This document shows positions 44,601 through 50,600 of a DNA stretch of 64,000 nucleotides, piece by piece. The translations under genes were made by a program, and so were the position numbers. The DNA lies in contig OX597816.1 in NCBI GenBank assembly GCA_951406725.2, positions 54,932,001-54,996,000 on the forward strand, written 5' to 3'. The notes under the pieces are model-generated. The model saw only the letters and a list, made by a program, of their open reading frames with translations, made no database searches and was not told the DNA's origin. Every line of letters starts with the position of its first letter. Positions within the stretch are counted from its first letter, which is position 1. Source of the stretch: Octopus vulgaris (Eukaryota).

Positions 44601-47600
44601 ATATCTATATCTATCTATCTATCTATCTATCTATCCATCCATCCATCCATCCATCCATCCATCCATCTATCTATCTATCTATCTATCTATCTATCTATCT
44701 ATCTATCTATCTATCTATCTATCTGTCTGTCTGTCTGTCTGTCTGTCTCTCTCTCTCTCTCTCTCTCTCTCTCTCTCTCTCTCTCTATATATATATATAT
44801 ATATATATATATATATATATATATATATATATATATATATATATATATATATATATATATATATATATATTTATTTATTTAAATCTCTGGGCCAGAGATA
44901 TACAGTAACAGTACTGGATAGTAATGTTTATACGCCAACAGAATGTGGAAGTCCTGTAAAGGACGACGTTACTGTTGTTTTAGCCCTAGGAAAGTATCTT
45001 TTCCATTAATATCCGGTACTGTTACTGTATGTCACCCGCCCAGAGATTTGGAACAAGTTGTTTTTTCTCTATACGAGATCAGTGATTGTGTGTCGCCAAA
45101 AATAAATAGAATATTTTTAAGTGGAGAGGTCTTTGAATATAGGCTATAGATAGATAGATAGATAGATAGATAGATAGATAGATAGATAGATAGATAGATA
45201 GATAGATAGATAGATAGATAGATAGATAGATAGATAGATAGATATGCACACACGCATATGTAAGGGTCAAAAAGTTTAATTCACACTCCTTGGTATTCTG
45301 AGTTTTAAGCGAGTTGCAAGTCTTCAGTCATTGTGTCAGACTCAATGCCCGAGAGACTAGGAAACCTTTGAAACTCAGAGTACAAGGACTTTGAAACAAA
45401 CTGTTTTGAACCATACATGTAACTCACAGTAAATGTATTGAGTACTCTTCTTTTGCTTTTCTCCTCACTCCTATATATATATATATATATATATATATAT
45501 ATATATATATATATATATATATATATATATATAAAACTTAGATAAAACTTAGATATGTTTCGACCAGAGATTGGTCCAGGCCATGTCTAACTTAATAGCA
45601 CCACCTGATAGGATTGTTCGAATCCTGTTTAAGTCAAGTTTTGTTCAAGTAGTGAGTTCTTGTTGGGTGAGTTGTATCCAGTTTTGTTCAAGTAGTGAGT
45701 TCTTGTTGGGTGAGTTGTATCCAATTATGGGTGGCTTGTCTGGTATTCTTTGAAGGAATCTATCCAGACTCTGTTTGAAGTTGATGGGATCCTTTTCCTC
45801 TTTGATCTCCCTCGGGACAATGTTAAATAGGGCAGGGCCTGTTGAGGAAAAGAAATTATGTTGCAGTGTACATGTATGTTGTGATCTTGAATTTGGCAGG
45901 GGACGTATAGCCCGTGGTCCAAGTCTCGGATGAAACTTGAAGCTAATGTTTAGGTCGTTTGGGCAAAGTTGGCGGTATATTTTCCACATCGTACAAATGA
46001 TGTACCGCTCACGGCGACGCTGGAGGGAGTAAAGTTTCAAGGCTTTAAGGCGATCCCAATAGTCGAGAGCAGCCATGCCTTCAATTTGTTTAGTGAGAGC
46101 CCTCTGGGGTGACTCAATTCTGGAGATGTTTTGTCTTGTGTGAGGAGACCACAGTGGGCAGCAGTATTCAAGGTGTGGCCGTACAAAGGATGAAAAAAGT
46201 GGTATGATGACACCTTGTTCTCTGGACCGGAAAGTTCTTAAGATCCAGGAACTCATCCTACGAGCTGTATCGACCTTCTTGTTGATGTGTGCGCTCCAAC
46301 TGAGATCGTCATCAACAATTACACCCAGGTCTCTGATATTGTTAGAGGCTGTGAGCGGTTCCCCTGAAGGAAGAGAGTATGGTTGTTTTAGTGAGGAATT
46401 TCTTCCAAAATGCATCAGCTCAAATTTTCCCTCATTCAGTTGCATTTTGTTTCTGTCTGCCCATTGACTCACAGCATATAGGTCAGACTGGAGTTGAGTT
46501 CGGTCTGCTTCTTCATTGACGATTTGCTGGAGCTTAGTGTCATCAGCGAATATTTTCACTTTGCAGTGATGTACGACACTGGAAAGGTCGTTTACATAAA
46601 TTATGAAGAGTAGCGGACCCAAAACAGTTCCCTGGGGAACACCGCTGGTGACTTTTGCTGGGTTTGAGTGGACTCCATCAACTACAACATGTTGTGTTCT
46701 ATTCGCTAGGAAATACTGAATCCAGTGTAGAACTTTTCCACGGATTCCAAAATTTGCCAATTTTGAGAGTAGGATGTTATGGTCTACCCTGTCGAACGCT
46801 TTACTGAGGTATTTGTTGTGCAAGATTTTTTTTATGTGAAGTCGTGTGTTGAAACAGATATTGTTATATTTCGGAATGGTCATATTGCCAGTTTAGCCAA
46901 TAAAAACACACGCACTATATATTTGGTGTTATTTTGCTTCAGTGATATTTATTTTTTACATTAATCTTAATCTTATTTCGGCCAAAGTTCTTTCGTCACA
47001 CTCCTGTGACCGCATCAGTGGTCCTTTGTTTTCTTCTCACTTACTTGTGTTTCTCCTTACTAACCGTCAGCCATTTTGTATTTCTATTGTATGTCTTCAT
47101 TTGCGCATGCTTATATCTCTATGTGCGTCTATGTTTATTTAGTGTGTGTGTGGGGGGGATGCCTGTAATATTTGTATCTTCTGGTTATATACATTCTTGT
47201 AATTTGTATTTTGTTTTTGTTGTTGTTGCTTTTGTTCTAATTTTGTTCATGTGTTTACATCCACCCATTATTATCATTACATATGCTTGTATGTATGTAT
47301 AACAACAATATTAGTAATAATAATAATAAATCTAATCGAAAAAAAAAAAAAAAAAAAGAATATACATATAATATATATATATACATACATATACATATAC
47401 ATATACATATATACACATATAGATATTCATTTCTATTTCTTTAATTACCTGTGTATTTATTATGTTTGCAGGATCCACTATTGTCATATGTTGTGGTGTG
47501 CGCTATTGCTCCATTCTAGTTTTCTATTCAGGCTAGGTTTATTTTCTATTATATGTGTAGCTTCTGTAATTTGTCTAATTGTTGCATCTGTTCTATGTGT

Positions 47601-50600
47601 GGACAATATCTTAATCTCTATGTTATTGATTGATCCCCCGTGCTCTTGTTCGGCATGTTGGTACAGAATCGATGAGCTTTTACCTTCCTTGAGTTGTCTC
47701 CAATGTTCATTCAGATCCTTGATTGTGTCGAGAACGGTGAAAACTTCTTGAAAACTCTGCGTAGGCCTCTGAAACTTCGTTACTATGGTGACAATCTGGA
47801 TTACTTATTGATCAGATTACGTATTTCAAACTAAAAATAGCTGGTGCATTTCTTGAGTCATTAAATAAAGGTGTTTGGTGCTGCCGATATCTGCAGTGGG
47901 GACAAAGGTTCGGCTCTTTATGTCTCTGGTCTTTCTTGTTCTGCTCTGTACTTGTCAGGCTCGGACACTGTCAATGGTCCTTAAGAGCTGCTTGAGTTCC
48001 ATTGGTATCAGGACGCTTCTTAAGATTATGGGTTACTACCGGTCGGATTTCGTATCCAACGAACGACTTTGGTCAGAAACTGGGATGTATCATGTTACTT
48101 ATATGATTCAGGATTTAGACCTTACCGTGCTCTCTTTACTAAGGGTCCGACTAGGTTGACAGCTCGCGTTGGTTGACCACATGCCACATAGTCACGACAG
48201 ATGATGAGGTGTCTCACGGTAATGAGGACTGTCTGAGACCCTGATTGATGGATCGCCCGAGAGGACCCGCTAAGATACCGGCAAACAGCGAATGCAGCAA
48301 CACACTGCAATGGCACATGACCCTTACCTGACTTGACCTGAATATTCTATTAAGAAGATCGAATATACCCATTTTTATCTATAGTTGAGATAGTATCATC
48401 AATGTGATACAACTTTTTATAGTTACTAACATAAAAAGCGGGTAGAGAGCAGTTGCAATAAATCAAAATTGCCAACTTCATAATCCTTTGGAGATTTTAG
48501 ACAGTATTGTAAGATTTTAAAATCAAAGTATAATACTTTCCGTTACAATAGCTGAACATAAATCTTCTGTTACCATTCTTAAGGTGGTGCTCCAGCATAG
48601 CCGCAGTCCAATGACTGAAACGTGTAAAAGAATAAAAAAAATTCTTTTGTTCTCTCTAATGAAATTCTTTGCTAACCAATAACCTCTTCAAATTCACAGA
48701 TTTTATATTAAAAAGTTGAAAAATGGTTAGAATATTTCATACAATCATGTGGAGCACAAGTTCATAAGTGAATAGAGTACCTTAAAGCGAAAAGGAGATT
48801 ACATTTCCTGGAATAAAATCTCTACGACTGCGTCATTTAGAATTTTAATTAATTTTGTCTTCTAGCATATATTAAAAATTCTAAATAAATACTCAGGTTG
48901 GAAATCATGTCGCATTTTCTACCGCGTTATGAACATATCTCCGTTTAGCGTTTTCTATTTGAAGAAAATTACTCAATACCATTGTAGAGATTATACAGAT
49001 GTAAGTATATGTTTACATACATGATTCTACCGCAAGTCGTATGACATCAGATGAGAGGATGAGCGTATATATGCAGAAGACTATGCATGGATATGTTAGA
49101 AAGCTCCGCGATGATAGTAACATTGATAATCAAAGCAGTCTATCATGGACCAACGACCGGATTAAGACCTTCCACTTTGAAAACTATGCGTTTGCAATCC
49201 AATAACAGAAAATATCAATCAAACACCTGATGAACAAAAGGGACAGAGATGCAGGAAAAGCAGTAAAATGTGGCAACCCATCACTCGCATCATAAGCAGT
49301 TGTCCAACAATGTCATCACGGTGTTATCTATCGATCAGACATGATTTTGTAGCTAGGACACTGTATAACGAGATCCGTCAAAAGGAAAATTCTGTACCAA
49401 CATGCCGAACAAGAGCACGGGGGATCAATCAATAACATAGAGATTAAGATATTGTCCACACATAGAACAGATGCAACAATTAGACAAATTACAGAAGCTA
49501 CACATATAATAGAAAAATAAACCTAGCCTGAATAGAAAACTAGAATGGAGCAATAGCGCACACCACAACATATGACAATAGTGGACCCTGCAAACATAAT
49601 AAATACACAGGTAATTAAAGAAATAGAAATGAATATCTATATGTGTATATATGTATATGTATATGTATATGTATGTATATATATATATGTATATGTATAT
49701 TCTTTTTTTTTTTTTTTTTAGATTAGATTTATTATTATTATTACTAATATTGTTGTTATACATACATACAAGCATATGTAATGATAATAATGGGTGGATG
49801 TAAACACATGAACAAAATTAGAACAAAAGCAACAACAACAAAAACAAAATACAAATTACAAGAATGTATATAACCAGAAGATACAAATATTACAGGCATC
49901 CCCCCCACACACACACTAAATAAACATAGACGCACATAGAGATATAAGCATGCGCAAATGAAGACATACAATAGAAATACAAAATGGCTGACGGTTAGTA
50001 AGGAGAAACACAAGTAAGTGAGAAGAAAACAAAGGACCACTGATGCGGTCACAGGAGTGTGACGAAAGAACTTTGGCCGAAATAAGATTAAGATTAATGT
50101 AAAAAATAAATATCACTGAAGCAAAATAACACCAAATATATAGTGCGTGTGTTTTTATTGGCTAAACTGGCAATATGACCATTCCGAAATATAACAATAT
50201 ATATATATATATATATATATATATATATATATATGTATGTATGTGTGTATATATATATATATATATATATATATATATATATATATATACTTATAATATA
50301 TTATAATTTTGTAGAGTACAAAATTATTATTCTTAAACAGAATATCATTGAAAGTGACTTCGAAGGTTCGACCTGTTAAACCATCGTAAATTTCGTAATC
50401 ACTATCAATAGTGTTCTTGTTTAAGAATTATACATACATACATACATACATACATACATACATACATACATACATACATACATACATACATACATATATA
50501 CATACATACATACATACATACATACATGCGTACATACATCATACATACATGCGTATGTATATATAATTGTTAACGAGAACAAAAGACATTAAGACAAAGC

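Follow-up and report, generated by a model that had tools for sequence, protein, structure and literature searches.

A composite insertion in a decarboxylase intron

The 64,000-nt stretch of Octopus vulgaris DNA analyzed here (the window; positions 54,932,001 to 54,996,000 of contig OX597816.1, assembly GCA_951406725.2) carries a composite insertion in which two inverted arms of a Penelope-like retroelement enclose a copy of host intron sequence, and the 3ʹ part of a CR1-type long interspersed nuclear element (LINE) abuts one of the outer ends. The insertion lies in a minus-strand gene that is identified as a pyridoxal-dependent decarboxylase by exon translations and a PF00282 match to one exon (E=1.7e-5, below the Pfam cut-off). 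Exon translations also show that, in the direction of transcription, the intron holding the source of the captured sequence immediately precedes the intron that carries the insertion. The features of the locus are as follows.

45472–45533, no strand: left (TA)31 array; ATA (3-nt) overlap with the LINE terminal repeat
45531–46807, minus: CR1-type LINE, 5ʹ-truncated; C-terminal part of the reverse transcriptase (RT), 3ʹ untranslated region (UTR) and 11-bp terminal repeat; frame open
46808–46857, minus: Penelope "tail" (46810–46857, 48 nt) plus 1–2 junction bases; matches an older relic at 29607–29698
46858–47711, minus: left Penelope-like arm, with the 3ʹ region, the last part of the GIY-YIG endonuclease frame and, near 47018, a hammerhead-like core
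47710–47773, plus: copy of 55399–55462; TT overlap with the left arm
47774–49390, plus: copy of 55672–57288, after a 209-bp skip; 1-nt overlap at the skip; 2 substitutions relative to the window source
49389–50200, plus: tailless right Penelope-like arm that abuts (TA)n directly; shares AT with the copy, then one mismatch and CTG
50197–50305, no strand: right compound (TA)n array
55399–57288, plus: origin of the captured copy, within the intron flanked by exons near 53306–53404 and 59635–59715; a patchwork of unique DNA and old repeats
43955–44056, minus: host decarboxylase exon, downstream of the insertion in transcription; domain match and translation
53306–53404, minus: decarboxylase exon separating the insertion from the source; left boundary set by the donor site, right boundary approximate

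Sequence comparison bears out the four abutting parts described by a first-pass annotation, in the order and on the strands that it gave, between TA arrays at 45472–45533 and 50197–50305; we infer that the whole composite lies inside one (TA)n array. Two details of that layout change. The LINE had been ended at 46806, whereas contigs of its family part from the window behind 46807. Additionally, the captured sequence had been described as a ~99.9% copy of 55399–57288; the copy is real, but it is not continuous, and the 209-bp deletion adds a sixth junction that had been overlooked. The inverted right arm and its AT overlap with the copy are present as described.

Family boundaries were placed with contigs from four public runs (X1, X3, X4 and X5, from three studies) aligned to 45730–49450. 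The contig evidence comprises the 24 of 2,442 loose-end rows, 32 of 77,757 contig pieces and 40 of 88 difference rows that were listed. Contig depth is not taken as copy number, and the bin 47230–47354, where repeats are skipped, has no contig cover.

The Penelope-like arms and the tail

The two arms (46858–47669 and 49389–50200) are 99.3% identical over 814 columns, with 2 substitutions and 3 small indels. The left arm extends past the right at both ends, outward to about 46810 and inward to 47711, so that the right arm lies wholly inside the stretch covered by the left and the same 812 nt are present in both. At 47051, 47643 and 47655 the arms share family-rare letters, from which at least 98% of the summed contig depth differs in four of four runs. 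Letters shared in this way suggest a single donor and a single event for the two arms. The pair is very probably a two-ended Penelope insertion.

Within the arms, only the last 74 aa of the endonuclease frame are present. By itself, this fragment gave no GIY-YIG match in a Pfam scan, and a word-index protein search with it returned no matches, although a full protein scan did find 92 relatives; those with a match at the C-terminus are 34–58% identical. The relatives' frames end in a GIY-YIG domain behind an RT-like region, with GIY-YIG (PF01541) matched in 4 of 13 scanned relatives (1 of 13 above the Pfam cut-off) and an RT-like YVDD motif upstream of the endonuclease in two long relatives. 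Judged by the sequence of these relatives, with their C-terminal GIY-YIG, the element is an endonuclease-positive (EN+) Penelope-like element. Its arms form an inverted pair of pseudo–long terminal repeats (pLTRs) with a tail on one end. The CX2-5CxxC motif, which in the Neptune/Nematis clades lies upstream of GIY-YIG, is seen in relatives P0003, P0008, P0028 and P0079, and the corresponding region is absent from the window. A motif scan places a hammerhead-like core with a 6-bp stem in both arms (folding z=−1.43); no hammerhead was among 15 matches of an Rfam scan. A metagenome scan with a 26-nt arm motif found 0 loci.

Both outer ends of the pair can be compared with the ends that the family uses elsewhere. 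Before 46858, a position that matches the exact end of the right arm, contigs of the family pass into TA repeats (19 in X4 and 20 in X5). One consensus row (12 contigs, X5, loose ends before 46828) follows the left-arm extension instead and turns to TA at 46810, and further loose ends lie before 46834 in the tail region. The tailed outer end thus appears to be a second usual end of the family. The tail carries the start of the reading frame that begins in the arm. Moreover, family sequence runs on through the tail end for a median of about 70 letters (43 contigs in X1 and 41 in X4), so the tail end is internal to the element. Behind the inner end of the left arm, family sequence continues past 47711 in 6 contigs. 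An older relic of the same family at 28900–29720 (75–79% identical in blocks) keeps the tail and has no TA repeats after it.

In L1 twin priming, the two parts derive from stretches of one RNA that do not overlap; here, a common stretch of 812 nt is present in both arms, copied from start sites that the element defines. Of the twin priming proposed in the first-pass annotation, the priming of both DNA ends therefore stands and the L1-style mechanism does not, since arms that cover one stretch are the ordinary inverted-pLTR product; for L1-type twin priming, the right arm should come from a different upstream stretch and not from wholly within that of the left. A snap-back origin of the right arm as a copy of the left is likewise disfavored by the 5 differences between them and by the position of its end at the usual TA end of the family.

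The captured intron sequence

Between the arms lie 1,681 bp taken from 5.2–7.1 kb away in the same gene. The copy, at 47710–49390, equals 55399–55462 joined to 55672–57288, with 2 substitutions and 209 bp of source absent. Short overlaps mark its junctions: TT where the left arm meets the copy, 1 nt at the skip, and AT where the copy meets the right arm. Capture of local sequence between two primed ends, as previously proposed, is supported. The capture breakpoints fall in old repeats at 55000–55720 and 57079–57543, which we take to be remnants of a mariner-like element and of a LINE bearing a restriction-like endonuclease.

Splicing as the cause of the 209-bp skip is rejected, the deleted piece having no GT-AG ends on either strand, and neither RNA nor DNA folds contain a hairpin that would bring the skip ends together. 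Upstream of the skip there is modest homology in the form of an 8-nt repeat (P=0.027 against 3,768 random pairs, post hoc), and upstream of the right join there is modest homology as well (P=0.04 against 4,000 random pairs, post hoc). Downstream homology at the breakpoints is weaker (P=0.88 and 0.11). This post hoc pattern leans weakly toward left-to-right synthesis on the minus strand.

A minus-strand template fits pre-mRNA and the coding DNA strand alike. The polarity of the copy had been read as a sign of pre-mRNA, a reading that is not supported: with two primed ends, host RNA can yield a direct copy from the left or an inverted copy from the right. Orientation is therefore uninformative, because the other cDNA end could copy the same RNA and give an inverted copy. 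Marks of RNA in the copy are likewise lacking, with no splice mark and no editing mark (no difference in 1327 bp of comparison with the contigs of X1 and X3), and RNA and DNA stand at about even odds as the template of the spacer.

At the two substituted sites, it is the window source (55775 and 56642) that differs from the contigs of all covering runs, and the captured copy that agrees with them (47877 in 4 of 4 runs; 48744 in 3 of 3 covering). Capture from the homologous chromosome is not claimed, since later mutation, recombination or polishing accounts equally well for the letters of the copy.

The CR1-type LINE and related elements in the window

The LINE part contains an open RT frame (RVT_1, E=8.6e-21). 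The CR1 label is our assumption, based on characteristic motifs and the short terminal repeat and not on placement in a tree. Behind 46807, where 4 contigs of X3 part from the window, the family reads on as YLDFSK, and at most two bases lie between CR1 and the tail. The 3ʹ UTR ends in an 11-bp terminal tandem repeat without poly(A); a second copy in the window has a 10-bp version. Among the listed in-frame differences from other family copies, 15 of 24 are synonymous, and this mostly synonymous pattern indicates a young copy whose differences were inherited from an active lineage. The named relatives are hypothetical proteins of an argonaut (61%, the most identical), a ctenophore and turtles (35–37%). 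Recently active CR1 and Penelope families are listed for O. vulgaris (PMC13282606).

The second CR1 copy provides a control case, and five further inverted-arm elements can be set beside the focal pair.

36074–37061, plus: another member of the CR1-type family, whose 5ʹ end abuts the outward extension of one arm in an older inverted-repeat element
9855–10367, 15478–15779, 16569–17013, 27893–28204 and 62197–62521: unrelated inverted-arm elements with a TA-type array at one end and a 36–68-nt extension at the other

The second CR1 sits in an older three-armed inverted-repeat element (35778–37932) with TA arrays on its flanks, and its 5ʹ end shares 5 nt with the arm extension where the two meet, with the polarity of the focal join. 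The three arms of that element are 85–89% alike, whereas the two CR1 copies differ at 27 of 767 positions. With arms that stand 11–15% apart, the second CR1 is younger than its neighbors and most likely arrived later. By analogy, this supports later entry of CR1 at the focal tail too, and it suggests that tail ends may attract this LINE, perhaps through recognition of tails by the Penelope endonuclease.

The asymmetry of the focal pair recurs in five of the window's six other inverted-arm elements, where one arm abuts an array directly and the other bears an extension of 36–68 nt; one of these five has a hammerhead-like core near 27991. From this architecture, the five are likely Penelope-type pairs that annotation would label miniature inverted-repeat transposable elements (MITEs). 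The spacers of the six other inverted pairs measure 2–129 bp.

Three repeat features lie elsewhere in the window. A near-identical tandem duplication (10533–11862 and 12043–13218) between TA arrays, with 2 substitutions and gaps of 3 and 151 bp, reflects either unequal exchange between arrays or a haplotype duplicate. At 25601–26397 lies a 165–180-bp tandem array whose minus strand holds an open, Thr-rich frame, and a 660-bp (AAT)n tract occupies 19912–20572.

Origin of the composite

We read the locus as a canonical Penelope-like insertion with two primed ends, a local spacer of traceable source and a LINE on its tail. A chain of jumps by one enzyme across three templates is not the best reading of it, and a form in which the elements share a break survives. 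We tentatively favor, at somewhat less than an even chance, one two-ended Penelope insertion into (TA)n with capture of intron sequence, followed by later entry of CR1 at the tail. The Penelope endonuclease would cut the (TA)n array, and one end would be primed at the tailed start site and the other at the untailed site, with RNA from one donor. The left cDNA would stop inside the endonuclease gene, switch, with 2 nt of overlap, to the upstream intron's minus strand, skip 209 nt and then be joined to the right cDNA through the AT overlap. CR1 would use a break at the border of tail and (TA)n, which the Penelope endonuclease may have cut anew, and the CR1 5ʹ end would be joined to the tail with no TA repeats kept.

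Several observations weigh against this account. It places three oddities (the CR1, the capture and the skip) in one insertion, for which a single disordered event would be cheaper. The CR1 and Penelope parts both look very young, and no TA repeat remains between CR1 and the tail. The tailed end as a usual family end is represented by a single consensus row that continues for four TA letters beyond the match. The join of left arm and copy has no upstream homology (P=0.94), and all P values are post hoc. None of the three spacers of at least 100 bp in other pairs of the window matches elsewhere in the window. The older element beside the second CR1 is unclassified, and that locus may itself be a chimera. 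Finally, no junction-bridging reads were seen, and none of the 32 listed contig pieces (of 77,757) bridges a junction.

The strongest competitor, which we consider unlikely, differs from the favored account at the first step: CR1 is primed on the left TA end, and a Penelope particle uses the unfinished CR1 cDNA as its primer at the tailed start site, after which synthesis proceeds as above. This accounts for a join at the Penelope start site without TA and needs no second hit on the same spot. Base 46809 is readable as templated by the next codon of the family, which leaves one base unexplained, and each of the two CR1 copies in the window abuts an arm extension at its 5ʹ end, with matching polarity. 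Penelope-like initiation needs no primer homology (PMC11167929), and chimeras of L1 with other RNAs, Alu among them, are on record (PMC13174262). However, two particles would have to be present at one break simultaneously, and CR1 is not needed to complete the Penelope pair. At the second locus, moreover, the adjoining arm is the longest branch of the three (~9%), which points to a later CR1.

A broader form of this idea, which we regard as doubtful, holds that (TA)n breaks cut by Penelope are shared and that the CR1 family lands repeatedly on Penelope tails, with cDNA handed over at this locus and the nascent intron RNA then read. Both CR1 copies of the window lie on Penelope tails, provided that the older element is a Penelope relative. 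A single-event origin is possible, and so is an RNA template for the capture.

The first-pass annotation had instead combined cross-family template switching with capture of intronic RNA in one event, in which the CR1 RT jumps from CR1 RNA to Penelope RNA and on to the host pre-mRNA, with a second-end cDNA closing the insertion. Local capture is retained from this proposal, but the jump of the CR1 enzyme to the 3ʹ end of Penelope RNA is not: the join falls at the tail end, an internal start site, and the family runs on beyond it. The three parts do share polarity, the 0–2-nt overlaps resemble template jumps, and in one case a local pre-mRNA was co-inserted with L1 (PMC10191854). Against this, the landing point matches a Penelope end site internal to the RNA, and the right end is a Penelope product, so that the Penelope enzyme was present anyway; the polarity is expected or uninformative. 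We give this chain of jumps only a slim chance. A similarly small chance attaches to a chimeric donor, in which the junction of tail and CR1 formed elsewhere and was copied here as one read-through RNA. A single RNA would then yield CR1 and the left arm without a coincidence at this site, but the coincidence is merely relocated, and the 64-kb window contains no second copy of the junction.

The possibility of an assembly artefact, whether from chimeric reads or mixed haplotypes, is bound up with the frequency of the allele. In a query with the junction region 47610–47870, the best run shares 0.56 of 23 sampled words, and nine of the 24 runs listed share 0.13; the expected share is 0.57–0.75 for a non-carrier and 0.13 for a run with only the common Penelope words. 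A best share at the non-carrier level means that the allele is rare or private, or an artefact. No RNA run is among the listed matches, which has no bearing on expression. In four of four runs, the unique contig departs from the copy at the skip point and reads on for another 45–79 letters, presumably in the undeleted source. Contigs demonstrate presence, not absence, and the assembled animal may be outside the indexed runs. An artefact would fit the missing junction words, the contigs that continue past the skip point, the contigs with the letters of the copy at both differing sites, and the other near-identical duplication at 10533–13218. However, family-standard ends, an asymmetric tail, 5 arm differences and three short-overlap junctions would be hard for a chimeric read to produce, and a rare or private allele yields the same absence; we judge an artefact improbable.

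Least probable of all is an order in which CR1 came first and a later Penelope cut fell within a few bases of its 5ʹ end, for although TAT at 46810–46812 is readable as both array remnant and tail and the family ends on TA arrays, the cut is required within ~3 nt of the array edge, or else trimming to that edge.

Significance

The way in which Penelope-like elements join two cDNAs, and the way in which they come to carry host DNA with its introns, are described as open questions (PMC8557442, PMC3846280). A young pair with a spacer whose source is traced to 5–7 kb away is a direct record of the joining and capture step, and as a single, so far unconfirmed allele it is proof of neither template type nor the use of shared cuts. 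The host lineage is known for heavy RNA editing, and a set of such spacers in such a lineage could settle whether the template is RNA or DNA. If LINE 5ʹ ends are enriched on Penelope tails, one class of retroelement would exploit the endonuclease cuts of another. If the shared-break reading is true, Penelope pairs would be a routine source of kilobase-scale local duplications and cross-class chimeras in cephalopod genomes.

Comparison with known systems

In the usual layout of Penelope insertions (PMC8557442, PMC3846280), a 5ʹ-truncated copy lies inverted and one end bears a tail. Both strands are cut and extended by a Penelope-like protein, which starts at two internal sites that bound the tail, and endonuclease recognition depended on the tail in D. 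virilis (PMC11167929). The focal pair resembles EN+ Penelope-like elements as described in these three papers in its inverted 5ʹ-truncated arms with 3ʹ ends outward and a single tail, its reading frame from arm through tail, its microsatellite target and the C-terminal GIY-YIG domain. The tail is described there as 30–40 nt and measures 48 nt here. Unlike in those descriptions, the inner ends here stand 1.68 kb of local host DNA apart, and the tail abuts a LINE and not the target.

A literature search, with subscription papers mostly outside its reach, found no CR1–Penelope join and no locally sourced spacer between inverted pLTRs. One likeness is host capture by Penelope elements of Adineta vaga (PMC3846280), in which unspliced, unrelated host sequence of ~1–1.5 kb or a whole gene lies between pLTRs. 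In that system, a nonribosomal peptide synthetase (NRPS) gene between direct pLTRs was moved to a new place and the account drawn on traces no spacer to its source, whereas the source of the octopus spacer lies 5–7 kb away in the same gene and its copy sits directly between inverted arms.

Among L1 insertions, a local pre-mRNA inserted together with a human L1 (PMC10191854) is alike in placing near-target transcript sequence inside a retro-insertion. That event is a single somatic case, whereas the insertion here is a Penelope pair with a template of RNA or DNA. L1 twin priming and chimeras (PMC13174262) are alike in that both ends of a break are primed and two RNAs enter one insertion. L1 breaks also give rise to local inversions and inverted duplications (10.1101/2024.12.14.628481).

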